NCBI GenBank assembly: GCA_013115125.1
Contig: JABANN010000069.1
Coordinates: 1-64,000 of the forward strand
Direction of reading: 5' to 3'
DNA: 64,000 nt
Source of the DNA: Perkinsus olseni
Taxonomy: Eukaryota
Below are positions 3,236 to 58,174 of this stretch, piece by piece (positions within the stretch are counted from its first letter, which is position 1; every line of letters starts with the position of its first letter). The notes under the pieces were generated by a model, which was given only the letters and a program-made list of their open reading frames with translations, ran no database searches and was not told where the DNA came from. The position numbers were made by a program, and so were the translations under genes.

Positions 3236-6200
3236 TCATAGAGAGCCTGTCGAGTCATCAGTGTCTATCGACGATGACTTTACTGTATACATCTGTCCGC
3301 TCAACAGATATTTTTTGGTGTACATAACAGCGGTCCTCGCGCCATCTTTCGGTAATACCCTGCTGCAAATTACACCTCCGCAACGAAAAGGAGGAGCACA
3401 ACGCAAGTCTCTCGGGTTCGAACCCTGGCCAGAGCTTCTCGGTAACTTTTCGGTAGCCCCTACCACGGCTCATGACAACTCTGGCCGGTAAAATGCGAAT
3501 AAAACCGCTTTCGTGTTTCTGAAATACGCAGACCATCGTTCTCGCGATACTTAACATAGTCAATAAACTGCTTTTCCTTACTTTCAAGAACGCCCCCGGA
3601 TTCCACACATAAAATACTTTGGCTTGACGAACAGGGCTTATTCAACAGGCTGAATCGTTCCCCACGGAAAGGTATGTCGATGATGTTAATCAAAGCCGTA
3701 TCATCGACCTTGGACTTCAAACTCACTCACACAAATCGAGTTTACCTCGCGAGGAGGTCTTCAGTCCAGGATAGACAGCTTATTGTATCCCCCACTTAAA
3801 AGAATGAATGAAACGCGTTTCTCCCCCGAGGTCGCCTAGGACACTGTCAAACACAAAACTACTCTCCTAACGATCAACGATGAAACAAACAGCAATCTAT
3901 AAATATCCGATGGCGGGAATGGGTCGCTCATTGACAAGCAGGAGATTCTGGCGACTCGACTCTAGTCCACACACCACCTATATTGCCACTTCGAGACTTC
4001 CAAACGATTTCGGGGATTTGTGGTATGCCGTCTTGGCCACACTGGGCGACTTGCTCACGCGTCGAGGGATACTGGTACGAGTACAGCCCGGAGGTGCCCC
4101 ACTTCACTACGGCCTGAAAAACCCGAAGGATCACGCAGGAATGAGAGCATGAACCTACGCTATCAGAGTCTACTGTACTGAGGGCCACCACCAACGGCTT
4201 CGAGACGCCCTTCTCTCCCGTCTTAGCGTCAATCGCAAAGGAGTCATCTCCCTCTATGAGGTAACGCTTGCCCTTCGTATCAGAGTAGAGTCCCTGTGAA
4301 AGTATTTATGAAGGAAATTAACAGACAAGATTTACCCACCTGGAGGGAGTTCAAAATTGTCTCCTTCACGTCACTCTCAAAGGCAGGCGGTGCTGCCGAG
4401 CTCGAAGAACTAGTCTGTGCCGTCTCCGCGACCGTTTCTCGCTAAAGTATGAGAATGAATCACGTCACTTATGAGTGCACTTCGAGCCACCTGTGGTGAA
4501 CGCCTGCCGGGCTGCCGAGCCGCTTTGCCGTTCTTGGATACGTTTCCGTCACTTTGTGGCTGAGCGTATCGTCCCGTCCCAATAACAGCACCATAAAGAG
4601 CCTCCTCGTCGTCAGTCCCTCTGAGGGTACTCCTAAGGGAAATGGCAATTGTTGACCATCCGATCGACGGTAATTTCAATCGGTTCGAAATCATACCAAC
4701 TCATCGGCAAGATGTGAAAATATTAACGTGGAATTGCAAACATAGCGATGAAACTTGTCCGTAACTTTACGCATGAAAGTTGACGAAGACATCTTCCCAG
4801 TAGTACTTTCCCCGTTGCGATTCCTCCTTCTCAATCTCCCGTGCAATCGTCTCCACCTTCGACCTTTGAGCGCTGCTTAGATTCTTTGGCACCTCAGTAG
4901 TGTACAATTTCCAATTAAAGCTAGTATGAACTCTGACAGAACAAAAGGTACTCCCAGAATCGCAGCCGCCTAGTATGTTGCAATATCTTCAAAAAATTTC
5001 ATACCGATGATAAATCTCAAGAACCGTGAGAACTATGCCGCCTCGCAGGTACATGCTGTGATACCACTCCAATCGTAACTCCCCCACTACCCGAATCGCT
5101 CCTCGTTCACTTTAAACTGGTCCCAATGAAGGTTCTCGGTCGCAGAAAAATCCGCAGTGGCCGCCTGAGAACCCACACGATCCACTACCGCTGGGCGAGT
5201 TCCCCACTTACCGTGTCGGCCTCAAGCCAGGTGTCGTCAACCCGATGCAAGGCGTGAGCGGACGCATCCTCATCATCCGCTGAATACCCACGAATTTTAG
5301 AAAGGATCTCATGATCCGTCTCTGAATGAAAATAACAAAACCCCGCTCGCCGCAACTAGGAAGATGAATCCGCTCGTCTGACGAAGTCCAACGCCCGTCA
5401 GGGTCAGCATCGATAATTCACCGCCAATCAGGCATCTTATCATTAATTAGTAGTGGCTCGGAGCGTGAGAATCGCCAGATGAGGTATTCAGGCGAGGAGA
5501 CCTCTAGTTCTCCATTGCTGCTGTTAATAACCGAACAAGGATGACGAATTGGATCGAATAAAATGCAGGAAGAGAAAAAACGATTTTAAGATAACGAAAA
5601 TTTACGCGGTAAACAAAAAGGAATTTCGCCTCTCTTTTGCGGTGTATCGACCGTTACGATGTAGTATGAGCCGAGGGGATATCGGAACGTTTGCGAGGTC
5701 CAGCCCCTATTACGGAATACACTGCCTTTCGGGCGCTGCCTCGCCAGCCTAACATAGTTCGTGACGCTAGATGGCAGCTTCCACCATGTCGTGACCTGGG
5801 AGGAATGGATCACTACAGCCCAGCCGAGTTTGCCGTGTCAGAGGCACGAGAGAGAACACCACCAAACAATTCCTCCATCTTTTGCAGAGACACTTTCTCG
5901 CTTCGCTCCGCTAGGCATGATTGCGTACTTCTGAGGGCCGTACTTCAGCACCGACCCTCTGATGAGTCGAGCGAAGCCACGAACAGGATGCCCGTGGGAG
6001 AGCCCCCTACCCTCACTCACTCTTTTGGCAGGTTGCTTTATATATACATGTACATAGTTAGCCCTGGAACTCGGGAGGGAGTACCAATGCTTACGACCTT
6101 CAATCTCGGCCAAATCCTGAGAAACAAACACTAGCCGCCTACTGACGCAGGAACCGATCGACGCAGGCCAACACGCCTCCTGGTAGTGGCGGACGACGGA

Positions 6201-7179
6201 GTGAGGGAAAAAAGAGTTGCCAGCCCAGACTAGTACGTTCATTTTGATGAACCTCGAGGAAGGGCCAGAGGCCATGTCTTGCTGAGCATCGGGTCTTACG
6301 ACCACCTCTCCCGTATGGCTGTCGGTCTGCCGTTCCCAAGAGAAAGAGGACGACCCCTGTTTCGCGCGCCACGAAACTCGTCCTTCAGAGAATTCAGTGC
6401 CTACGCCCAAGAGTGGTGGTGCTGCGAGATCGGTGTCGGTATTACTATCAAGAATGTATCTTCCAGAACTGCCCCAGTAAATGGTACCTGAAGGTGCAGT
6501 CAATTCTCGAAGGTCTCCGTAGCATAACGGATAAGATCCACCCCTATCATTCCGGAGGACGCGGGTTCGAATCACCACCCGACATATAGCGACGACGAGT
6601 AATCACTAAAATGTTTCTGCCTACCTATACAAGGACGGGGAACCGTCAGGCAGGCAGACGGGGTACCCAGTCTGGGTAACAGTCTCACTCTCGGCCGTGA
6701 TACATCACGAGGATTCTCGAAAACGAAACCTCACAACTCCGCCGACACGCGCAAGCATACACCGCCTGGGGGCCGATGATTCAAGAATTAAAGGAACTGC
6801 CCGAATTAAAGAGGACCTCACCCTACTACCATCCTTATGTTGTAGCAATTTATCGTAGGTCCGGAGAGGTACGCCGTCCTTCGATACATGTACCGTACTG
6901 CCCTGAACCTGACACTGGCCAAGCTGCAATTACCAGCCTACCCAGAGCGAAGCCCTTCTGGAGAATGATCTGTATCACGGCTCTGTCGCCACTTCACCAA
7001 AGAACGACAGACTGTAGTACCTTGTAGGTCTTATGGTCCTCTAGACCGTGCCATTCACCTTGTATCCTCGCCAAGGGGTCATTCTCCAAGACCGAGGCGA
7101 AGAGCAGGTCCAGAGGGGTGGATCCATCCGAGGGAGGCAAGCCTCCAGTCTCCGAGCTTCCCCTGCTGGGGCCGAGCAT
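3236..7179 (-). CDS. Ataxin-2/Pbp1-like protein with LsmAD domain (multi-exon; could be more than one gene)
   Basis: Splicing 5090 to 4933 gives WDQFKVNEERFGVHTSFNWKLYTTEVPKNLSSAQRSKVETIAREIEKEE, then DDEEALYGAV: the LsmAD signature; outer boundaries tentative. Confidence 0.7.
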
Positions 7180-11699: not shown

Positions 11700-12739
11700 T
11701 TTACTATGAGGGGTGGCGTCTGCTGATAACTAACAAACGCAATTTGACGATTGGGAGATACGTACATCTTTAAATTCGTAACCCGAAAGTACGACACCCG
11801 GGTTGCGTCGTCTTGAATCCGATCTTGCATCTGCTGTCTTCTCATCATCCACCACTCAGCTTCTTATCGGCTAGGATCAGCGACATAAACATTACCAATG
11901 TTCACCGAAGTCAAGTGGGGTCGAGTCCCTTCCCGCATAGACCATGCCTCAACGGTTTTCCTAACACGTTCGGCTGGAGGTGAGAACAGCAGAGGAAACG
12001 CTCAGCAGTCAGCAATCCCTTCAGGCGGTCACTCTGTTCTGAACGACACACGGCCGTTGTCGAGATACAGCACAGGGGACTTGATGATCGCGTAGGGATG
12101 ATAAGACGCGGGAGGTCGTCATGCTAGGCTATCATTGACAGATCGAAAATCCGACTGGGATCGCACACGCTGCCGCCCAACGGAGCCCTGTCGGGGGATT
12201 ACCGGTACCAGCGCTTATCAATGCTCTGTCTCGATCATGTTGCTAACAGGCTGTCCACAGAAGACGCCACGGACCGGCGGATGAATCGGGTTCTTCGTAG
12301 CGAGAAGGATGTGAAGAAGATAGGACGGTGTTGCGATGCTGAACTGAAACGTTCGAAGCGGCTATACAAGTAGGAGGCTTGGCAGCTGCCCTTCTCGAGG
12401 GAAACTCAAAATTACGAATAAACTGCGGACCAGGACGATGATCGCCTCTCAGGCGACTGGGAGATCTCCGGAAGACCATGAAGCGTGAGAGCTCTCGTCT
12501 ACACTATCAGTTAACCCCACTGCAGCCGAGGCGTACCGAAGGCAAGAACTATGATCAACACTCCTTCGTGTTCCTTCATCATAGTCACAGGCACGACCAG
12601 CTCCCTGGCCGAGTTCAGGAACGGCGATCTTGAGCAGTACTATTACCGATCGCCTGTGTACGAAATCATGGGCCGACAAGCTAGTATACTTAACATGTAC
12701 CCCTATAGTGATTCCCTGAGGAGACGGTACCGATTGTGA
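11700..12739 (+). CDS. Hypothetical multi-exon protein
   Basis: Series of short exons flanked by GT/AG; terminal ORF 12551-12739. Confidence 0.3.
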
Positions 12740-15088: not shown

Positions 15089-16870
15089 GATGGACTTCAA
15101 TTCCCCTCTTGCTGTTGTCATTCAACACAGCGGTACGTCTTCCCTTATTTGTTATACTACTCCTTGAAGTCATCGCAGCCGCTACGGCTCTGCTGTCGAC
15201 TGTTGCCTCGGCCACAACCTGGGTTCGCACCGCGGGTCTCCCTCCTGGGCAGCGTGATGATGGCGAGGGCGTGGTAAGCCAAGGGTGATCACGGGTTGAC
15301 TCAGAACAATAAGATATCGTCCGATAGGAAAACCCAGCCAAATCTTGGCTGTTGCAGCTGGCCACGTCCGAGGGGTCGTTCAATAAACAAATTCGGAAAA
15401 TCGGAAAAGTTTCCGGAAAATCTTTCCAGCTTGAAAAAATGAACCCTGAATCGAATTCGAGTTTCAGAATTACTTCACTATGTCACTGAAGTGAAGTATA
15501 ACTTGCTATCTTGTCGTCCTTGATAGCACGCGTCGCCGTGTGACGCAGATATCAGTACCAAAGTATTCGTTATAGACAAGATTTCCCACCAACCAACCTA
15601 TTGTGTATGAGCAGTGACGACCAAACACCCGGGAACCAGTTACAACTAAGCGAGCGGAGAGCTCCGTGCGAACCGGTCCAATGGTGCTGTTGTTGCCTGA
15701 ATTTCCTTCGCGAGGTTCATTCAGGTCGTCGGCGTTAAACCCTCCACTTTGGGCTGTGAGGTTAACCTTCACAGTAACGGAGAAAGACGCATGAGATTTT
15801 TCTTCGACGCACTCCCCCCGGAAGCTGAAATCAGCTACTCTCGGTTCACCGACTTTACCACCAACATGGATTTTTCATTGTAAGTTTTGCGTATCTTAGG
15901 TTGATGCATGCCTTTCACGGATTAGAATCTTCGTACGTTCTCCTCAGCAATCGTTATTACTATGACGACTAGGGACGCGAACGAGAAGGTTTAGGGGTGA
16001 GGTGCGAGATAGAGTATTTGTCGGAGACCAGCAGACTTGGTATAAACTGGAGGACGCCTGCCTGCTGCCGTTGGGCCATCTCTCTCCGTCAACCATAGAA
16101 GTCATCAAGACCACTATGCCACCGACCTGGGCTGTGCCCAGTCAAGAAAGTTGCATTACTATGGCTTTGGCGATTTTGAACGACGCTCCTGAGGGTTATG
16201 AGGGTGAGGAGGAGGTTACCTCGCTTTCACAAAGAGAAGACGGCGATGATGCAATCGGCATTGGTCGGGCTGCGCTGAATAGGGGAAGGAGCGGGAGGGT
16301 ATTATCAAGCTGTTCATGTTGTATGGATGTTGATAACCTCTGGCGAGGAATGTGTCGAGTTGGGCGTGAATTTTGATGACCCCCTACCCGGAGGCCTCGT
16401 GAACCGTCGTGGAGGCTAGGGTGGGTTAAGAGGATCCCAAAGGTCGTGTGCTATGGAGTCCATTCTGCACGCTGCGTCCAACGAAAAGATTTGAATCTCT
16501 GGAGGCTCGTCGTTGAAGATGAATTTCGATAAACACGATCGAACTCGGGCGGATAGTGGTTGATACGGCTGACTCTGGTTAAGCTCAGTTCAGGGCTATC
16601 GAAAATCTCTAGGACTTGCAGTGGGAAGGTGTCAATATTTTTTTGAGGCGACCAGTGGTACGTCTTCGTAGGCTGGTGCATTCACTCAGCTTTGCCATGC
16701 ACATACGGTACATTACCGAAGTGATTCTCCTAGCTGTCGGCTCCCAAGCTGTCGTGGAGATCTCCTACGAGATGCTACAGACTGGGCCGACCGCTGCTGC
16801 TGCTGTCCTGCAGGCGGCCACCGGGCAAGGTAGTATGGGAAGTAGGCTGGCATGTCTTCTTGTACTTTGA
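15089..16870 (+). CDS. Hypothetical multi-exon protein
   Basis: Exon-like segments (e.g. FIQVVGVKPSTLGCEV.., QTWYKLEDACLLPLG..) with GT-AG introns; 3' end uncertain. Confidence 0.35.
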
Positions 16871-17921
16871 CTGAGGCCAACCAAAGATACCTTCTCCCAT
16901 AATTGCGCTATCTTTGAACCATCCAAGTCGTCGGTCGAACACTCATCGTTTTTGAGTGTCTGATGCAGTGCAGAACGAAGATAATTCTCACCTTATTTTG
17001 CGCTTGGAAGCTTTGATAGTCACTGATACAAGCGACGCCATAAGACGCTCTGCTGGCAGTTGCCCTCGTGCGTCGTGGCCTCTCCCTACTCCTCATCTCC
17101 GGGGTGTCTTGTAGGGCGTTTCTCCGCCGGAATCGACTGGATCTGACGTTCCTCAGGTTTAACAACGTATCCATTTCTAGTCGACGATTTGCCTTAGTAG
17201 AATTTCACCACGTTTATCCAGTCTTCGACCACGCAGCTCGGGTGGTCTCGTCGTTTGTAGCGATATCGTGGAACGCGCTTCGACATATCTAATGTCGAAC
17301 CTTGATTTGCACAGAATCAATAACCGTTTCATCAGGTATCTTCATGATCGACTCATTACCATCTTCCTTTAATGAAGCATACACTGTTCTGTCCGAGTCG
17401 CTGCCGCACTGCCGTGGTGGCCGAGAAGAGGTTTTGCCCGACGGCACAGTTCGGATTACTCTCGCTCAAAGTAGTGATGGTCATGTCGTTGCCGCTCGAT
17501 GTATGGAATAATTTCATGGCGCGTGAAGGAAGTATCGGGGTAGTGAAGCGGTTTGGTCGTCCTAGTCTAGCGTTGAGGGCTGTATCGTTGAGAGTCTCGG
17601 ACGTTCGGGGTGGTGTGGTACTAGGTGGTACTAGGTGTTGGTACGATCGATGCTCGTTGTTATCGGTGGGAACGGGTTACCGTCGCCGAGGCGAAACTCT
17701 CGACGGAAATTTTCCTTCCTGCAGTACAGTTAAAAAGCCAGCCTTTTCTGGTCGAAAGGCGCCGGGCGATTAAACAGTAAAATCTTCCACGCCGCTTCAA
17801 AACTCTGCCGCTGCTGCTGAGTCTTATCACGGGGCAGCTGGTCCAGATCGGGGCTGAATGAATAATTTATTTACGGCTCTCTACGGCAGGGCTTGCGCTC
17901 GCGTGAAGAATTGTGTATGAC

Positions 17922-20183
17922 ATGGAGATTATCAGGATAGTCGCCCAAGGTGTATTCTCATCAATCGCTCTTGTCGATCGCTAGTCTTGGTCCTTGTCGA
18001 AGCCCTCCGGTCAGGATCTGAGAATGCCAGTGCGGCCTTCCTTCACCAGCACGGCTGCCCAATGGCCACGGTAGAAGCAAGGCGTGATGTTCGCAGCACT
18101 CTGAACCGCATCGGTCGGGGTGTGGCGGGGATTCTGGATGAGGTTGGGCGAGGGTCGGTCAAGGAACCAAGACGTGACTGGGCCCCTTGACAGGTACTTG
18201 AAGTTGAGTACCCGATAGATCGGGCTAGTAGCATCGAAGACATCATCGAACTGGGCAGAGACAGCCATCTGGATCATCACCATATATATAGGACGTCTCT
18301 GAGGGACGATAGTGAAACTGATGTACTACGGGGAAAAGGCGGAATTTCGTGGCGCGCGGGAAATTCATTTGGCGGAGGGTGTTCAATAAACCAACTCTAG
18401 GACTCAGTAACGATCCTGAAGCTGATTTCATCCACATCGTGTCAGACTTTGATCGGTACCCGCGAACTGGGAGTCGACCGGGTAGTTGACTCAATGCCTA
18501 TCGAGAATCGCTACATTCTCTGGTGTTTCTCTCACATGTACCAAATTCCTGCTTTTTACGTGTAAAAGTTAATTCAAGAATCGAAATCTTGAATGAAAGA
18601 ATTAGTTCATTCAACTTGGGGTGAGCTCGGAACCCGTTCTTTTGAATTTCGTGGCGCGCGGGAAATTTTCTCGAGAGCAGTGAGTGAGCCAGGTGCCGCT
18701 TTGAATTTTATGGCGCGCGACATGACGATCGTCGTCCCGTTCAGGTGAACTCTACTTTATCTCTTCACATCGATCAAGGTGTATTCTTATTACTGGTCCT
18801 GCCGCCCGGTGACACCAACTTCCACTACTTGGACTCCGTCACTTCCGAGGAAGTCCTCAGCGGTGGAAAATCGATCGCTTTCAAAATGTCCTGTCTAGGT
18901 CCGCTTGGAAGTACCGGATGATGGCAGGACGCGCGTGGTGGTTTTCTTCGGCAGAACTCTGAGGGAGTTTACGAGTAGGTTGGGCGAGCACTCCGGCTGT
19001 GATGTTGTGAAGGAGCCAGGTACAGTTCCGGCCGTACGACCGTTGCCACATTTTGTGAGAATATCTCCCAGCCCCCTGGCCACTCGAGTGGTTATCGGCC
19101 GCATGTTTCTGCTTCCACCGGAAGCGATGAGCTACAGGTCGTCACCGCCGATGACGTATCGGGAGTGGAATCGGAGGGCGGTGGCTTTGAGGTCGTCTGA
19201 TGGTGGTGAGGTGGTTGAGGCGAAGAGAAGGCTGGGTAGGGAGGGTGGGGTGTGGAGATCTTCGGCAACGTTATATTCAGAAAAATTTCTGAATTTTCTG
19301 AGGTTTTCCGGGAAAATTTACTTTTTAGGAATTTTACGGGACGAAAGTTTAACAGTGGCTCGAAGGGAATCTTTTTGACCTGGAGTTTACCGTGGAGGTC
19401 GACATAGCTAAAGATACTCTTGACCGTTTCAACAACACTCAAGATTCGCCATGCTTCTTTTCAGAGGCGGCCTGCAAGGATGGCGAGATCTACTGTTGGA
19501 TGCAGTGCATGGCGGCCGACTGCGCCGTCGGTCTTCACCCCACCTGCTACGACCCGGCCAAGCAGGAGTCCTGCGACCCCAACGCCATGAACCATCAGTG
19601 TGGGGTGGAGTGCCGAGCGGAGCAAGCTAGCACACCCACGGTCGATCCTGGGGCCTTCTGCACTGGCTCGACGGTTATGTTCATGTCCGGTTTCACTTGG
19701 TCTGGCAGCGCTAAGAATCCCTGCGTGATACTGTTCACGCCCTCTTGGGTTCTCGACACGCCAGGCAAGTTCGCTATGGGGTGCATAGGAGTGCTTTTAC
19801 TGGGTATGCTGGTTGAAGGACTTCTCGCAGCCCGACGACGCTTCCTTGGCTACGTCCGGAGACCCCTTATAAAAAGCCTTGTAGGGTCCCTGGCCTTTGG
19901 CGTCAGCGTCTCTATTGCGTACCTGGCGATGCTGGTTGTGATGACGTATAGCTGTGAACTTTTCATCTGCCTTTGCGTCGGCCTGGCAATTGGTCACTTC
20001 CTTTTTGGTAATGTGAAACAGGAGATCGGTGAAGCTGCTGAACCGTGCTGTGGTGACACTACTGTTGTACGCCAACAGCAGACTTCGACAGGTTTGACCG
20101 CGCGCCACAAAAATATTGATGACGGCATGGACTCCCTGAGTGAGAGCCCGGTAGTTGGCACTCCGAGCGGACGGCAGGCGTAG
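17922..20183 (+). CDS. Fusion: signal peptide + 2OG/Fe(II)-oxygenase-like domain + Cys-rich module + Ctr copper transporter
   Basis: Hand-spliced in frame: MEIIRIVAQVLVLVEALRS..HLDHHHIY..LSLHIDQGVFLLL..VVFFG..PLPHFV..RVVIGRM..RRL|EAACKDGEIYCWMQC..MFMSGF..ILF..W..AYLAMLVVMTYS..GLAIGHFLF; Ctr MxxxM and GxxxG motifs present. Confidence 0.8.
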
Positions 20184-20509
20184 ATTTTTTATATATCAAT
20201 TTCGTTACTCGAGCCGGCGGGTTGACCGGGACTCGACGTTTGTAGTGGTCGTCGTTATTAGGTAGATGATTCTTGCCGTTTACTTTGTAGGGGCTGTCGC
20301 TGCTGCAGCTGCGGTTGGCATATTGGCTCCTTTGGTGATATCAATTGGGACCGTCCTGAAGGCTCACTGCTCTCCGACGGTCCGGTAGGAGATCTTTTAT
20401 GCGGTTGATTATTTCGAGCATTGCTATCGTGTTGGGTTATGGTAGTTCAGGGTGGGATTCAGTGGAAGCTTCGCTCCGCTAGAAAACTGAGTCATCTTTC
20501 TCCCTTTTT

Positions 20510-21507
20510 ATGGGACGTCTTGTGGGAGCCTTGGAAAACTACGGGTTGACACCCCAGGACGCAGCGGGAGTCGCCGGAACCTTTATCGTCGTAAAGTACG
20601 CGACCTTGGCGGCCTTCGTCCCCATCTGTCACTACGCCCAGCCGGTTCGGCGGTTATTCTGGCATCCCTCCCGAGAGCTCGCAGGGAGAGTGTTGGAGCA
20701 GTACAAAGTACGTAATAGAATTCGAGGAGGAGGGGTGTTCAATAGAAGTCTCGGGTCTTCCAATGGTGCCCCCTTGGATGTCTCTTCGTCGGGTCTGGTA
20801 CCACCGTCAGCTCGATTGAAGTTGGCAGCAACGCGAGCTCGGCAGAGGGCGTGGATGGATCGCCAGAGGGAGATGGTGGCGCTGCGCAAGGCGGGCTGGC
20901 AGGGGCGGTTCCGAGGTTTCAAGGAGAAGCAGTCGACCTCGAGTTGGGGGAGGAAACTGTTTGAGTAGGGAAGGCGACGGCGGAACGAAGCGATTCTGGC
21001 TGCGATTGGAGACTGCGTTGCAAAAACGGAATATCGATTTCTTTTCTGAAATTTTTGAAATTTTCTTATGAAATGTTCGTAATCTTTCTGTTATGAAACT
21101 TAGTATGATTTTGTGACTCTGCTGCACCAACTTTGTTTCGCTGGCCCTCACTCAGTTTCACGGGAAATCTTCACTACGCCCTGCTCACTCTCAGGTGGAG
21201 TGACAAATTTGCCGATCGTGCAGCTCGGGCTTGGCTGTGGCGGAGCGTAGCTAGCGTTTTCCGGATACCCCCTAAGGTCCTTGCCTGGGACGTCGCGGAG
21301 GCCTTTCTCACCTACAAGCTCACCTTCATCTTCCACGCCCCCTTGGAGCTGTACATCATCGTCAAGTGGTTCAAAGCACGGCGAGCCAACTTGGATGAAT
21401 TCATGGAAGAGTCGCCGAAGCTGCTCGAGATGGTGGAGGATGAGGAGCCGCTGGGAAGCGCTGCGTCGGCTGGGTCTCGATGGTGGCCTCTGCGGACGGC
21501 TGGGTAG
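20510..21507 (+). CDS. Hypothetical membrane protein (2 exons)
   Basis: ORFs 20510-20968 and 21133-21507 join through an AT-rich intron; hydrophobic segments present. Confidence 0.6.
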
Positions 21508-22129: not shown

Positions 22130-25100
22130 ATGCCCAGTCAAAGACGCTTCATCATCGCTCTCGCGGTGGCGTTGTTGGCTATGATGGTATCATTACTAAT
22201 GTAACCTGGTAACCGTAGCATTGCCAGTGTATTACCGAATCCTTCGTCGTCAGGTTCGTAGCGGACGTGACGTGGAAGCCTCGACTTTTCTATCACCCGC
22301 CACTCTGTGATCGCCGCCCGAGTAGCGAAGACAGCGGCGCCCCTCTACGACTGGAATGCTTCTTTTCTGAGAAGTGATGGTCAATCGACCTTTACTTGTT
22401 CATGGAGTTGATAGTATCTTAGTGAAATCGTGATATCTCCTTTTATTGTTATTGAAGCGTTGTAAACTGTGACGTATCTTGTTGATGACAGGTCGACTTT
22501 GATGACACGTCTATTGCCAGGCAGAAGAAGCGACGGTTGTTTTCTTATGAACTTCCGTCGCGATTGTTCATGCCTCGCTAGTAGCCGTGCGTAAGTGACT
22601 TGTGAATTACGGTGTGTGAAGAGTTTTGCCACTGTGCGTCGCCCCTGCGAGTCTTAACGTACTGCCGTAGCACCGAATTTAATGCCTGGCCTTTGGGACG
22701 GCCGTACCGCAAAAATTGCAGTTTTTCCATCTCTACATAAAAGCCCGACGCTGTTATCGACCGCCCTTCTGTCTCGTCATCATCCGACTAGTACCTTCCC
22801 CCGCAACTTTCTCATCGGTCTCCCTCAGTTACTACGAAGCTCGAGCGCAATTCCGGAGGCTAGCCAGCGAGGCAGGTCTCGAGTTGAGCTCATTCGAAGT
22901 GGTGCCTTCTAGTGGGTATGGTGATGAGTACACCATGGACGTGGCCATCCTGCGGCCGACGGAAGGGCTCACCAGCGGGAGTGTCGTCCACACGTCGGGC
23001 GTGCACGGCGTCGAGGGGTATGCTGGCTCTGGTATCCAGTGTTACATACTGGACCAGATCAGACGGGCTAGGGAGGAGGGACGTCTTGCAGGAATAGGGA
23101 AAACTTTGGTAAGGCAGTGCATTTTTTTGGTTTTTATTTGCATTTTTTGCCAGGTTTTTGTCCATGCCGTGAATCCCTACGGCATGGTCCACTACCGAAG
23201 ATTTAATGAAGAGAATGTCGATCTGAACAGGAACGCGCTAGAGCCGCATGAGTTTGATTTTCTTGTTAACGAACGGGACCCGAATGTTGCCGGGTATGCT
23301 GCCCCTCGTGAAAGTCGATAATTTCATGTTCCACAGATACGTCGATTTGGACGCCATTTTGAACCCTCGAGAGATGACCATACCCTCGCTTCTCTATAAC
23401 GCGGTTATTCTACTGGCCAGGTGAGTCGGTGGAGTGGCCACGAGGAAGTCTTTTTCATGCTGAGTTTACAAGGCTTGTTCGATGATGAGCGTAGAAAGCG
23501 TGGTGAAGTCACTGTGAAGTGTTGGTGAAGGAACGGTATGAACGACAAAATTATTCACGTAATTGAAGACCCATTGTTACGGAAATATTAGTACTTCGCA
23601 AACGGGTTCTCTGGGTCAGCAGTGGCGGAGGAGAGTCGAGGGGACTGGATACGCTGGAGATAAATCATAACAGCTGCGCTCTAGAAACTCGTCGTGAATA
23701 TCGTTTGCATGGCAGAGCTTCTGGAGTCCTTGATCTCTCACAGGGTAAACTCTCACAGGTACGGCATCAGTCGCGTTAAACGGGCTGTAGTTGGCGCCCA
23801 GTACTGGAAACCTTCTGGACTGTTCTTTGGTGGCCACAAACTGCAACGCTCACACCAGATTTTGACACAAGTAGAGCCGGCCGCCCAGCCTGTTGGGTGT
23901 ACTGCGTCACAGCAGGTCTTCGCGGATCTGAAGATATTCGAGGGAAATTCGACAATAATCGACATCCACACTGGGCTGGGTCCGAGCGGAGTGGATACAC
24001 TCATCACCAGCGACTCTGATGCTGTGAGTTTCGAGGAGGCCTTCGACCAGCAATCAGCGTCCTTGCTTTAGTTCGACTTTTTCTCGGCCCTGGTGAAGTC
24101 GCGAAGTCCCTCGGATGCCCCTCCCGTAGAATGCGTGGGTGCTGACTGCTCGGCAGCGGTCGGAGGGCGCGACCAGCCAGGGTTCGGAGCGGATGTTGTT
24201 CGTGGATACGACATCGTTCGGGGAGATGCTAGCAGCTTTTGGACTCGCAAAAGGCAAGCTTCGACCTCGGATGCGTTTCTTGGTATCTTTCTTCCCGCGC
24301 GAACGAGACCTTGTTTCAGTACCAACGGCACTCGAGTGAGCTGCGTCTCGCAAGAGTTTGGAACGCATAGCACCATTCTGGCCCTGCCCATTATGATCAT
24401 GGAAAATATGGCGTAGGTTGGCGTGAGGGGGGGCTCTTAGGATGCCGATTGAGCAGTTCATGGGGGCGGCGGTGTGACTGAGTTTAAAGTCCAATCTCGG
24501 AGCCCGCTCGGTTGGACTTTCACTCGGTTCTTGTGGACTTTTTTCCAGCAGTGGCGGTGTAGTTGTGGAGAAGTCCCAGCTGATGAGTGTTACGCACATT
24601 ACCTGATCTGTCTGATTGCACTGCATGCCAACCCTACAGAGTGTCTCCAACTGTGCACATCGGCAAGAGCCACTAAGCCGGAACCGTAGGCGTTGGACTA
24701 TTATTTCACAGGCACGCAAATTGCTGCCCATCAGTGTTCTCACCTCACTTTGATACTCCTCTGTAGTATCCCCGTGTTTTCCGATGTAACGTCAATCTAT
24801 GTATGGTCAATCTTACGAAAGGGATCTAAAAACTGATGTAACTGGCGAGACAGACTGTGGCTGAGGAAAGTTCGATCCGAGGGAAGGCTGAGCTGCTTGG
24901 TTGGGTTGGAGCGTTGGCTGTGGCCATTCCCTCGTGTAGGTTCCACTACTCACCTGACGACCACTCGAGGTGGGCTGGGTATAATCGAGATTTTTTTTAT
25001 GTAAGGACTGCTGAATGGAAGCATAGTCTTATCGATAGGTAAGAGGGCGTGGCTTGAGTGAAGCAGCTTGCTGCTTCTTTCGGCTTCCTTCGACTTTACT

Positions 25101-48851: not shown

Positions 48852-50804
48852 ATGATAATGCTTAGGGCCCTTCTACTAACCTGTATCTGCTGGCAGGCTA
48901 TCTCGGCTCCCTTCCGTTGGGAAGTGCTTGATAATGGTGGGGGGCCCGGTGCCCGCGATAGGCCGGCCATCGGCTATGATCCTCTTCGTGAGTTGGGCGT
49001 TAATCTTGAAATCGGCTGAATTGATTTCTTGTGTCAGGTAGGAATTTGATCTCCTTCGGTGGCCGTTCTGGAGGCTCCCTCTTCCAGGACACGTGGTACT
49101 TCAACTTGGACAGTCAAACCTGGACCCTCGTCAATGTGGCTAACCCTCCTGCTGCTCGCTTCGATGCTATCTCTGGTGAGGGTGTTCCCCTCAGCCACGC
49201 TGTTGCCTGCGGATTCGTTCAGGCTATGACGTGGCGACTGGTCTTTTCGCCATCTCCACCGGCGATGCCGCCCCTGTCTTCTTCAACGACCTCTGGGTGC
49301 TGGTAGATTATGCCGGCCCAAATCCACAATGGCGTAGGATCGACGCGCAGTCAACCCGCTCGTTCGAACCAAGGTGGGTGTCACTTGACATGTCTTAGTG
49401 ACAGAGTCGGTTCGAGTAGGTACGGTTGCGGCGGCGGTCTGGCCATGGACGGCTATATCTATATAAGCCTCGGATTTGATGGCGCCACCCGATTTGGGGA
49501 TACATTTCGATTTCGCCTTTCCAACACCAGCGGAGGCTCATGGGAAGAGGTGCTTCAGCACTCCGCACACTCGATGTCGTCAGATGTCCTGAGTTTGCCT
49601 GTCTCCTCAGGTTTCGAACACCTTCCAATACGGTATAAACGAGCCTCATGCGCGCTGTCTTGTTGGCAACGCCGTCCTTCCGGGCACCAACTACGGCAAG
49701 TTCGTCATGTTTGGTGGATGCGCTAATGGTGGTAAACATGGCGGCCCGTGCCCAGCCTACGATACCTGGACTCTCGACCAGTCTATGAGTTGGGATCGTC
49801 AGGCGGATGCACCGGTGCCCACTGTATTCGGAGACCTTGCGGCTTGGGGCACTGATAAAGTTATCATGTACGGTGGAGCCGGCCCTGATCTTGACCAGCC
49901 CATCAGCATCACCGACCAGACCCCAGCTGATGTCCATGTTCTTGATCTCAACGCCAACGATTGGGAGAGTTACAAGGCTGAGCTGCCCAGTGGGATCCCC
50001 GGGCTCACACCGCAATCGTCTGCTATCGCCTTTCACCGTATGGTGGTGGCAGGCATTAACCCGCCGGCTGTGCTCCTCTTCGGTGGTCGTATCAATGGTC
50101 GTGTGTTGATGCTCACTGGCGGTCCTTCCGGCAGCCCAATAAGTAGCGGATGGTTCTACTTCTCTTGGATTTGGTTACACGGTATATTCATGGTCGCCGC
50201 CTGGGGCTTATGCCTGCCGATTGGGGCATTCATTTTCCGTTACTTTCGTCATAAGAAGTTTGCTTGGCCGGCTCATCTGGCATTGCAGAGTATCGGATTG
50301 GTCTTCAGCATCGTTGGCTTCATCGCTTCCTTCTACACCGGCGGTACCTTCGATTTTGCTCACGCGTACATTGGTATTATAGTATTCATCCTCGGGTGTT
50401 TGCAGCCGATCAATGCGGCATTCAGATGCCATCCTCGAGGACGAAATTTTCTCTGTAAGATTGACTACGGCAAGAGGTACATCTTCAACGCCTTTCACCA
50501 AATTGGTGGTCGAGCTGCACTTCTGCTGGGTATTGTCAACATCATGCTCGGCATACCCCTCGCTCAACTTCAAGTCGGCTGGCTGATAGGCGTTGGTGTC
50601 TGGTTTGCTGTCCTCATCTTTGGTCACTTCGTCTGCGAGCTTCTCCGTATGAGAGGAGTTCTACCACGCATACCTCGAAGCTACAACGAGCTCTACTTGC
50701 CTGGACCATTGAAGAAGCTCCACACGCACGCCCATCGAGATGAAGATCTGATTGCTGCGCCGCCCAAGGAGGCTGGCAGTGCACCAACTACCGGTGACCA
50801 CTGA
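48852..50804 (+). CDS. Kelch-repeat (beta-propeller) + cytochrome b561/ferric-reductase transmembrane fusion
   Basis: Signal peptide; Kelch repeats (SFGG..DTW, MFGG..DTW, MYGG, LFGG); b561 His ligands in WLHGIFMVAAWG, PAHLALQ, FAHAYIG and AFHQIGGR. Confidence 0.85.
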
Positions 50805-54945: not shown

Positions 54946-57900
54946 TCACTCGCGAGCTGGCCCTCGGCGGCCTCGTGAACGGAGTGGACCTGAGAGCTGT
55001 GTGGTGAGCCGAAGGGAACCATAAGATTCCCTCACCAGTGCCACGCCGAGCCAGGCCGCTATGATGACAGGGCCGACCGAGGTGAGGAGCTGCAAGACGC
55101 TTGCTCTGTGGCTCGAACCACTGTCGGCGAGCATCTGCAGGGTCGCGGTGAGGACTTGTTCTCCCATGATGAAAACGGCGAATGTTGTGAAGCTCCCGGC
55201 CGCCAAGGCTGCTGTTGCCTGAAAATGCATAAGGGAATGATCACGTAAGATAGAGCAGCGAATGGACACTGGCCATTGGCCAGCTGTGTGCCCCACGCCA
55301 GTATCATACCAACGCGGCTGCCAACTCGCAGGTTGGCGAAAAACCTATCAATATATAGCGAAGAAGTAAGCTTTTATTCTTCGGAGCGGCAGTAGTACTG
55401 CCGCAGTACTCTACAGCCCAGTCAAACAATCTGCAGAAGCGATTCCGCAGCGAAAGGTATGGCGACACATGGAAGTACAGTCACCGATAGCAAAATCTTT
55501 GCACTCTTACGGAAGATGGACGCCATGGACATAGAATTGAGCGGCATTTTTCGGTCCGTCCCACCATTCCTCCGCGAGAATGAGTTGTACTTACCGCATA
55601 GGCCTTGCGGGCTAAGGCTGCTTGAAGGAGGAAGGCAACCACCACTCCCAACGGGCATGTCAAGGACACTAGAAAATTCAACCTGACAAGGAAGAAGGTT
55701 GGTGAGCAGAGTTCGTCACGAGGCGAGGGAGCGCTGTCCACACAATACGCTGAAAGAGGGGCCTTTAGTATGACCCGCTAAAGGGGGCACCTGGTGGCAC
55801 CAGGCTGGTGCCCGGCACCACCAGCGCGCGAGTTGCCTTATGCTAAGTGAAATGGTTTGGTGGAATCCTGGGTTTCTATCTCGGAGATAGTATCTCCATA
55901 CCTAAACTACAGTGATGGGATCATCTACTACCGTCAGCTGAGCAAGGTTCCATAATTGTGCACTTGCACAACTACACCTTATTAATGAAACCCTCGGTGA
56001 ATCTCAACTTGACTCAAGTTGCTCGAGTTCCTTGAGAATCTCAAGGCTCGAATAGGGACTTCTCGGTCAGCTAGTTCACGGACAGTAGCTGCGATAAACT
56101 TGGCAGAACGAATGACTTCCTCATCCATATCTTCAGCTCCTTTGAACATGCCGAAGTCTTCAGAGGTGATGGCTCCGAAGAACCTTACCAACCCCGAGAG
56201 CACCGGCCATTCCTTATTCCAAGACCCAGTTGGAGTGGGGGCTCTGTTCATGAGAGCCACAAAAGACTGCTCCTGAACTGGATGGCCTAAGCGGACCTTC
56301 CTATAGTTCCTCAGAGTCGGTAGTTCCGCCACCTCTTCAGGATCGTTTGCCAACAACACGGAAAATTCCACAAGAAGTCCGTAGCGGAACGCTACTAGCG
56401 TTCGAGTTATCCCCCGAATGTGTCTTCGCCGTAGCTGACGAAGCGAACAAGGTCTTTCTGAGCCGAAGCAATTATCGTGTTGATTTCTGCATCTCTAGGG
56501 TGACCAAGCCACTTCACATAGGATTGGTAGAAGAAGGAGCAAGCACCAACCTCCTTAGTGATGATTCCACTGATGGAGATGACCTCACTCTAAAGCGCCT
56601 TGTTCATGCCATAGACTCTCAAACCCCGCTTGATGGCGCTTCTCCAACTGCATCCTCTAATTATTAGAGCGACTATTAGACTGTCTAATCTGCTTGAGCA
56701 ATCCGTCCTGCCTTTGCTCCAAGATAAGGTACGTTGATAGAAAGTATGATGATATCCACAGACTGTGGACCACAGTATACTAGTTCTAGTACATAGAACT
56801 TCCATTTGTCCAAAACGCTTCGCCGCCCAGAGGTGGCTTCCAATTTGGAAGTTCCAAAGCTGATTCTGAAGATGCGGCCACGGCGATGGGTATTGAGAAT
56901 TCCCGGCGCTGTTGCTGGAACCAGTACCACATTTTGACCACCTCTCTACCGAACGACCCGCGGGCGAATGGGAGTGAGTGTTGCTGAGGAAACAGAAGGC
57001 ACAGTAATCTTGGGCGGACGTAAACAAGTGAACGTTCAGAGGTCGAAATACAGGGAGAGCAACTACAAGGTGTCGCGGATGAGCGAATTTGCCCCAAGGC
57101 GAGAGCCAAGATGGGCCCGAGATGGGGGTTTAGATCGTGCTGCGCCAATCAATGAATTCAGCACGATCGGAAACCGTTCTTGGGCCCCAAACGACTGTTT
57201 GAGGCAGTTTGTTGAATCCAGATTCGTCGATTTCTCCGTCGCAAAATTCACGCAGAGCTCACCAAAGGAGTCGCGCCGGATGCAAACCCGCCGCCAGAAA
57301 GAGTACTCCGTCCGACAGCTCCTGCGGTACCTCGTGAGCTACCACTGCTATTGTCACCGTCCGAGCACTCGCGATATCTACGCATCAAGCTTGCATGTGA
57401 TAGGTTAACCTACTGCTTACTTGGGCCAAGATACGCCATGCCGAGAGAGAGACCGTCGACGAAGTTATGGAGAAGCTCGATCTGAAATAAAGGGCCTTTT
57501 ATCGTGGACTACTCTACCGACGAAGGATGTTGCGGCAAGGCGTGAAAAATTAACGGCCAACGGAAGCCGGACGTAGGGTCGCCGAAAATTCCCGTGTGCA
57601 TACCACAAAATTCCCAAAAAACTGTCGTCAGTTTCCCGAAAATCTTTTCTCACCAGCAAGTTGGCGACACCAAAATTCTTGATCTCATCTCGATCTTGTC
57701 CCGGATGCTCCCTATGGTGCTTCTCATGAAGGATGTCCACTCCTCTGTTAATACCGAGGGTCAGTCCCACGCCGATTAGGAAAAACAAGTAGCCTGAGAA
57801 GGACGAAGCATTCCTGGTGGGGGGGGAAGGAAGGCCCTTACTGCTGCCTCCGGCGTTGAGCACTTCGGGGACGAGATGACCGACGCTGTCACATGTCATC

Positions 57901-58174
57901 ACCGCGCACGCAAACGATAGGAAAAAACCTGGAAAATTTCGATTTTTTACGAAAAAAATGTTCTTTTACTTTCCAGAATTTTAGGCGCGGTTTGCCCACC
58001 CTTTAATAGGTAGACCAAAAACACTGAAGTGCCGGCAGCAAGAATTGAGCACACCTGAGAAATGACGGAATAAAAAACGAAAGATCATCGAATTCTGTCG
58101 GGACGTACGCTCATCAAACCACCCGAAAAAAGTGCCTCAGAAAACGCTGGTGAGTGAAGGAAGCCGAATGACAT
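54946..58174 (-). CDS. ZIP family (LIV-1/LZT-like) zinc transporter
   Basis: FACAVMTCDSVGHLVPE, His-rich loop HEKHHREH, TM4 NLL|IELLHNFVDGLSLG, TM5 VVAHEVPQELSDG, LNFLVSLTCPLG, ALAAGSF; start codon uncertain. Confidence 0.85.

Follow-up and report, generated by a model that had tools for sequence, protein, structure and literature searches.

An oxygenase-like ectodomain fused to a Ctr-family copper channel in Perkinsus olseni and other protists

Structure and transcription of the fused gene

The window, that is, the whole stretch of DNA analysed here, comprises 64,000 nucleotides of the genome of the shellfish parasite Perkinsus olseni (assembly GCA_013115125.1, contig JABANN010000069.1, positions 1 to 64,000). 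Its forward strand carries a gene that fuses an ectodomain to a Ctr channel domain; the fusion is real, and consists of one gene and one spliced transcript (Table 1). Read from the ATG at 16697, where the gene probably starts, the spliced frame is open over eight exons and encodes 547 amino acids.

Table 1. Features of the fused gene in the P. olseni window.
Feature	Position	Strand	Remarks
Probable trans-splice acceptor AG	16688-16689	+	acceptor context same in C3077 paralogue
Exon 1 (putative)	16690..16829	+	ATG 16697; predicted signal peptide, about residues 1-18
Exon 2	17336..17470	+	N-terminal part of oxygenase fold; conserved C70, R84; joint in X1, X3, X15
Intron 2	17471..18014	+	skips 544, GT..AG, depth 0-1; contains the formerly proposed ATG 17922
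Exon 3	18015..18142	+	conserved C104
Exon 4	18194..18322	+	beta-helix strand I: H160 (18275), H162 (18281), Y164 (18287)
Exon 5	18745..18852	+	HxD motif: H183 (18766), D185 (18772)
Exon 6	18899..18974	+	beta-helix core strands
Exon 7	19020..19235	+	H247 (19049), R259 (19085), V261, M265 (19103), linker, RRL (19226-19234)
Phase-1 intron	19236..19464	+	GT..AG, 229 nt; 3/4 runs; joins ectodomain to Cys module and Ctr
Cys-rich module	19473..19613	+	C312-C358, CWMQC; small beta module
Ctr core	19677..20009	+	MxM (M380/M382), TM1, MxxxM (M464/M468)-x12-GxxxG (G481/G485)
Cytosolic tail	20010..20183	+	CC (20046-20051), stop codon; transcript continues to about 20420

From the 24 listed runs, reads of four (X1, X3, X15 and X23) were placed over 17400-20700. 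X23 had no reads placed in this interval. The other three, which come from three studies (X1 guessed to be RNA, X3 RNA on record, X15 of unknown kind), each contain six GT..AG joints: 17470>18015, 18140>18192, 18322>18745, 18852>18899, 18974>19020 and 19234>19464. The last of these (cut +1) corresponds to the in-frame phase-1 junction 19235/19465 predicted by the sequence-only reading; it is present in three of the four runs, with 215 letters on its shorter side. In two runs the ectodomain and Ctr lie on a single contig (X3, 1895 nt; X15, 1908 nt), which is assembled and not a single molecule, and both contigs span 17400 to about 20410-20420 and cross every one of the six joints. We also looked for an independent start of the Ctr part, through a spliced leader added near 19465: the listed loose ends include none at 19465, and the one with leader-like character, before 20481, lies where the next gene starts.

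An artefact, in which prediction or assembly merged neighbouring genes, might be argued from the fact that the contigs are not single molecules, and from public model P0003, which does wrongly extend into the downstream gene. For practical purposes this explanation is nevertheless refuted by a joint seen in three studies, by the 19 intron-free loci, among 80 metagenome loci, in which the fusion is one uninterrupted frame, and by hundreds of full-length relatives.

The 5' end of the gene required revision. The protein had been taken to begin, with its signal peptide, at ATG 17922, in a model without exons 1 and 2. That start is misplaced because 17471-18014 is spliced out; the frame from ATG 17922 is open on paper, and we rejected it as intronic. 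Over 17844-17954, X1 reaches a read depth of 1.0, and X3 and X15 stay at 0. For exon 2, the 3' part and its joint were observed in RNA. Exon 1 we infer, since read placement began at 17400. Upstream of this position, the contigs of X3 and X15 extend by 223-224 letters, which equal 64 + 140 + about 20, and the 20 or so extra letters would leave room for a spliced leader. The intron 16830-17335 is GT..AG, exon 1 is present in the P. olseni models P0001 and P0003, a paralogue on contig C3077 has the same acceptor context ahead of its start, and the product of exon 1 has a hydropathy peak of 2.15 at residues 9-20.

Downstream of the corrected start, the motifs reported earlier were all recovered in the spliced frame: HLDHHH (18266), LHIDQG (18763, His codon 18766), PLPHF (19040), RVVIGR (19085) and KRRL (19223), followed by the Cys-rich module with its CWMQC and a complete Ctr core. 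A public P. olseni model corresponds to residues 48-547 with 0 mismatches and has no signal peptide, so the fusion is already in the databases, minus its signal peptide. The last exon has 91% identity to a P. olseni protein and 66% to a P. chesapeaki protein.

On every feature tested, the window protein is a member of the Ctr/SLC31 family, and it is predicted to transport copper. It matches Pfam Ctr (PF04145) with an E-value of 8.6e-17 and a score of 62.5 bits (cut-off 25.3), and the model of its orthologue has three membrane helices (402-432, 436-461, 466-482). In a family alignment of 155 rows (the window protein and 154 others, three of them fragments and four near-duplicate models from Perkinsus; median pairwise identity 34%), an MxM ahead of TM1 is found in 155/155 rows, MxxxM in 155/155 and GxxxG in 154/155, with a spacer of 12 residues, and CC lies at most 40 residues past TM3 in 121 of 140. 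The three-helix core, the Met pair, the MxxxM-x12-GxxxG and the C-terminal Cys motif are shared with Ctr/SLC31 proteins such as the salmon Ctr1 chimera (6M97/6M98). This signature, and the capture of copper by Ctr channels through Met/His-rich N-terminal motifs, are described in PMC9502191. Unlike a typical Ctr, the fused protein has, beyond Met/His-rich motifs, a signal peptide, a folded domain some 270 residues long and a Cys-rich module.

Among 24 ORFs of the window, there is no other metal-related match than a distant cytochrome b561, in an ORF at 49593-50804 that also has Kelch-like matches, and a weak ZIP transporter match below cut-off at 57465-57965. Immediately downstream, the gene at 20481-20968 is transcribed separately, and P0003 wrongly merges it with Ctr. 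A DUF2817 gene with several exons follows at 22683-24071.

The fusion family and its members in P. olseni

The fusion is not confined to this locus: it belongs to a large family and is already in public P. olseni models. A six-sequence full-length profile searched against 1.84 billion representatives retrieved at least 655 representative clusters at E<=1e-30. We scanned the best 150 of these 655 with Pfam; three fragments and five earlier matches were excluded, leaving 142 new proteins. Ctr was found in all 142 (141 above cut-off), a biased count that is no gauge of the standalone domain because the profile included Ctr. Unlike a typical Ctr, 33 of the 142 relatives have a C-terminal HMA domain, and these are scattered in a FastTree tree of 140 rows. 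NCBIfam returned HMA-type matches only, below cut-off, in one of five proteins.

The architecture is present in dinoflagellates, rhizarians, stramenopiles and green algae. Named members, found in the first search or by 30 look-ups, include Perkinsus, Symbiodinium pilosum, Gymnodinium catenatum, Polykrikos kofoidii, Paulinella chromatophora, Norrisiella sphaerica, a pelagophyte and Cymbomonas tetramitiformis; most members are nameless, and the counts are lower bounds. Among Atlas clusters, diatoms have Ctr, and the oomycete clusters display none. The same architecture, for which a search had been proposed, thus occurs in dinoflagellates and other protists. Searches with patterns for the Cys module plus Ctr, rather than for the double-stranded beta-helix (DSBH), gave 0 of 69 candidates in prokaryote genomes and 0 of 176 in viral contigs. 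A word-based protein search yielded 2 and 6 matches and missed the distant family. One relative, P0141 (1523 aa; equal length in Logan), carries, next to ectodomain, Cys module, Ctr and HMA, a P-type ATPase marked by CPC and DKTGT motifs; unless chimeric, it is an importer fused to a pump.

Database labels each name one of the domains: UniRef calls P0001, P0002 and P0096 'Fe2OG dioxygenase domain-containing protein', and automatic labels read 'Copper transport protein' for P0182, which is without exon 1 and the signal peptide, and 'COPT6' for P0008. Chlamydomonas CTR1 and CTR2 reportedly have a Cys-Met motif and an enlarged ectodomain bearing Cys and Met; that ectodomain is described as a set of short repeated motifs, unlike an oxygenase fold. 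A literature search, with most subscription journals outside its scope, found no description of an ectodomain-Ctr fusion. The family is widespread and apparently uncharacterised, and the database labels describe neither the fusion, nor the altered pocket, nor a function.

The P. olseni genome encodes four members, three with Ctr (on contigs C3001, C54 and C1880) and one without (C3077); all three Ctr genes found in the genome carry the ectodomain. The third Ctr fusion (C1880; L010:1376-3270), overlooked by the Pfam Ctr genome search, has Asn at the position of His162. In the C54 paralogue (L008, between 2548 and 2900), the linker-side exon is interrupted by an in-frame stop at the position of a Trp in P0004; this is either a broken allele or an assembly error. 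The Ctr-less paralogue (C3077, about 4570-6330) has a signal peptide, a DSBH with intact pocket, RRL, a Cys module and a GPI-like tail. It is followed by two Cu/Zn SOD copies (C3077:7383-7697 and 11919-12329) with apparent signal peptides; both have a Cys-rich N-terminal part, and the nearer copy seems truncated. The genome has eight Sod_Cu matches.

Fold and pocket of the ectodomain

The P. chesapeaki orthologue P0002 was modelled with AlphaFold, using 145 aligned sequences. The model has a mean pLDDT of 82.7 and a pTM of 0.63, with domain orientation uncertain and the linker at 288-303 disordered (pLDDT<50). Residues from about 10 to 298 resemble IPNS-like oxygenases both in Foldseek (ACC oxidase and deoxypodophyllotoxin synthase, DPS, at E 1.7e-10) and in VIA (Z 22.1, rmsd 2.7-3.0 over 245-254 residues against rice DAO and GA2ox3; the 50 listed entries all have Z 20-22), and an Atlas search concurs. 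By sequence, the family profile run against the PDB matches salmon Ctr1 (E 3.3e-20) and, as its nearest oxygenase, the Neurospora pyrimidine nucleoside 2'-hydroxylase (PDN2'H, 9HDL; E 1.2e-11). According to this orthologue model, the ectodomain is an IPNS-like DSBH with an intact facial triad, in agreement with the fold proposed for it beforehand. No 2OG Pfam match (PF03171/PF14226) was displayed for six proteins at E<=1, nor for the 142 relatives at E<=0.01, where one protein's sixth family was not displayed.

The ectodomain shares the DSBH, the HxD..H, the Arg and the Tyr with IPNS-like oxygenases such as DAO (6KUN), GA2ox3 (6KU3), DPS (7E37) and ACC oxidase (5GJ9). It differs from them in its signal peptide, a conserved Cys pair and the fused channel; C104 probably forms a disulfide with C70. 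It further differs in its pocket, where the serine of the RxS motif is lost and a His/His/Met set is near-invariant.

In the family alignment, the triad residues H183, D185 and H247 are kept in 152/153, 153/153 and 151/153 rows, respectively, and the whole triad in 148 of the 149 complete rows. The Arg of the 2OG site, R259, is present in 150/152, and the strand-I residue Y164 is Tyr in 134/151 and Phe in 17/151. At the serine position of RxS, occupied by V261 in the window protein, none of the 149 complete rows has Ser or Thr; 124 have Trp and 24 have Val. Further near-invariant residues are H160 (146/151), H162 (147/151), M265 (148/152) and G263 (141/152), and all six of H160, H162, H183, D185, H247 and M265 occur jointly in 139/149. 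A mutual-information analysis of covariation (148 rows) was swamped by invariant columns and discarded. Sets of His and Met are typical copper ligands.

The counterparts of these residues can be read from DPS. HMM alignment places H160, H162 and Y164 onto its His165, Met167 and Tyr169, and counting from the Arg places M265 (R+6) at its Phe255. According to PMC8740726, the 2OG ligands of DPS are Arg249, Ser251 and Tyr169, and its substrate contacts are His165, Met167 and Phe255; an equivalent Arg/Ser/Tyr trio binds 2OG in GA2ox3 (PMC7195466), and our definition of RxS follows these two sources. By this register, the 'His cluster' HLDHHHIY lies on the active-site strand, with His, His and Met in the substrate pocket; the side chains of His160, His162 and Met265 would be grouped there. 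The residues of the cluster are thus present as first noticed, but they are part of beta-helix core strand I and not a free His tract. Similarly, the HxD..H..R layout of 2OG enzymes is kept as regards triad and Arg, but none of the 149 rows has the serine of RxS. Because the Arg is retained and the serine lost, the site is not a canonical 2OG site, and we do not place the protein among the canonical 2OG oxygenases.

IPNS and ACC oxidase are 2OG-independent Fe/O2 oxidases. The ectodomain might still be a catalyst, either as a 2OG-independent Fe/O2 oxidase acting on a thiol or another copper chelator, or by reducing Cu(II) with a bound, carboxylate-bearing reductant, with Cu(I) released at the pore. 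The conservation of triad, Arg and Tyr would suit such an activity, and the closest folds are active enzymes, ACC oxidase and IPNS among them. Diatoms and algae, moreover, use organically complexed copper after a reduction at the surface whose molecular mechanism PMC9502191 calls poorly understood. We nevertheless regard catalysis, the chief rival of the capture reading given below, as somewhat unlikely, given the RxS serine replaced throughout, mostly by Trp. An oxidase using O2 would seem an odd source of Cu(I), and an external supply of Fe(II) or co-substrate is not evident. The genome also has three ferric-reductase and two cytochrome b561 matches of its own, so that no reductase is missing and the ectodomain fills no evident gap.

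Linker, location and a possible route for copper

Between ectodomain and channel, the window protein has the RRL at which cleavage had been proposed. RR[LM] occurs in 31/152 linkers, and near the Cys module in 27/140, so the motif itself is not universal; the shorter RxL is enriched, being found in the last 22 residues ahead of the Cys module in 80/140 compared with 14% of control windows, after exclusion of 7 proteins and 8 rows with gaps. Linker cleavage at RxL is thus plausible from the motif counts, and, as RxL is missing from 60/140, it is not a family-wide requirement. Most members outside Perkinsus have one linker Cys, and an odd Cys total (2+1+10 in 60/148); such an odd linker Cys suggests either an unpaired thiol or a bond between chains. 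In the Cys module, Met or His stands immediately N-terminal of the seventh Cys in 113/141. Searched alone (pLDDT 66.5), the module gave a best Z of 2.5, nothing in Foldseek at E<=0.001 and nothing usable in the Atlas, a lack of match that indicates neither absence nor novelty. A complex prediction of the P0002 ectodomain on a trimer of Cys module plus Ctr, with the alignment unused, scored 0.00 and is evidence neither way.

If the linker is cut, the protein could be a polyprotein or carry a pro-domain: the ectodomain would work apart, for instance by supplying secreted cuproenzymes with copper or by keeping the channel gated until its removal, and the mature transporter would be the Cys module and Ctr. 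We consider this improbable. It is in keeping with the RxL enrichment, with the RRL or RRM in the linkers of all four P. olseni paralogues, with the disordered linker of the orthologue model, with the removal of RXL domains from diatom silaffins by proteolysis (PMC5525289), and with the two Cu/Zn SOD copies adjoining the Ctr-less paralogue with the GPI-like tail. Against it, many members have no RxL at the linker end and few have RR[LM], and the linker Cys of most non-Perkinsus members could tether the two halves. The neighbouring SOD copies are a single case noticed post hoc, the nearer of them seemingly truncated, and there are no metal-related neighbours among the 36 flanking ORFs of 15 metagenome loci.

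The location of the protein admits a further alternative. Several hosts of the family are phagotrophs or parasites, and the protein could reside in the vacuole or lysosome membrane, its ectodomain stripping copper off digested material for the cytosol. Vacuolar Ctr proteins exist, as PMC9502191 relates, and a signal peptide fits the plasma membrane or a lumen alike (an N-terminal hydrophobic stretch is found in 112/125 rows). The tail motif [DE]xxxL[LI] is, however, present in only 11/148, the paralogue with the GPI-like tail suggests the cell surface, and diatoms and a pelagophyte have members too; we give this recycling role a still slimmer chance than the pro-domain.

Building on the transcript, the modelled fold, the conserved residues and the Ctr signature, we favour, at a probability of about 0.45, the reading in which the oxygenase fold is reused to capture copper that is passed to the Ctr pore. 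The protein would be a Cu(I) channel of the secretory pathway, with the whole IPNS-like fold serving as capture site on its extracellular or lumenal side. The signal peptide would bring the ectodomain outside the cell or into a lumen, and the HxD..H triad would hold a metal. His160, His162 and Met265 would take the place of the organic substrate of related enzymes and, with or beside the triad, could form a His/Met-rich copper site in a 2OG pocket altered from serine to Trp or Val. Copper from seawater or host ligands may then pass to the Met or His of the Cys module and the invariant MxM at the pore mouth, and from there through the MxxxM filter to the CC motif in the cytosol or to the HMA domain, where one is fused. 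In the many members with RxL, a cut may leave the ectodomain as a loosely held or soluble scavenger.

The sequence-only reading had suggested metal capture or redox chemistry coupled to copper import; this is still conjecture, strengthened by the His/His/Met of the pocket and the C-terminal HMA domain of 33 of the 142 relatives. The triad, R259 and Tyr164 are kept as in active enzymes, so catalysis fits equally well, and DPS holds an organic substrate with the His and Met of strand I, so that a His there is no proof of a metal site. The Asn at position 162 of the C1880 paralogue counts against capture. The domain also occurs without Ctr, in the C3077 paralogue and the oomycete clusters, and its job may therefore not depend on the channel.

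A more specific form of the capture reading, which we hold to be unlikely, is a two-metal site. Here, a metal in the triad would sit beside a His-His-Met copper subsite derived from a former 2OG oxygenase; the site would strip and/or reduce ligand-bound copper and feed Cu(I) to its own Ctr and fused HMA chaperone, in a family-wide and protist-specific manner. If true, it would provide new chemistry for the DSBH fold and a missing step in the use of ligand-bound copper by marine plankton.

Coupling of a surface redox or metal-handling enzyme to a metal importer has precedents in yeast, in Fre1/Ctr1 and Fet3/Ftr1. These are separate proteins with unrelated folds, whereas the fusion family has partner and importer in one chain. 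The family supplies a soluble, expressible domain and a set of residues (H160, H162, H183, D185, H247 and M265) for direct tests. A whole enzyme fold is placed on Ctr in at least several hundred protist clusters, and its pocket is remodelled alike across alveolates, rhizarians, stramenopiles and green algae. The fusion may be how many marine single-celled eukaryotes capture scarce, tightly bound copper.
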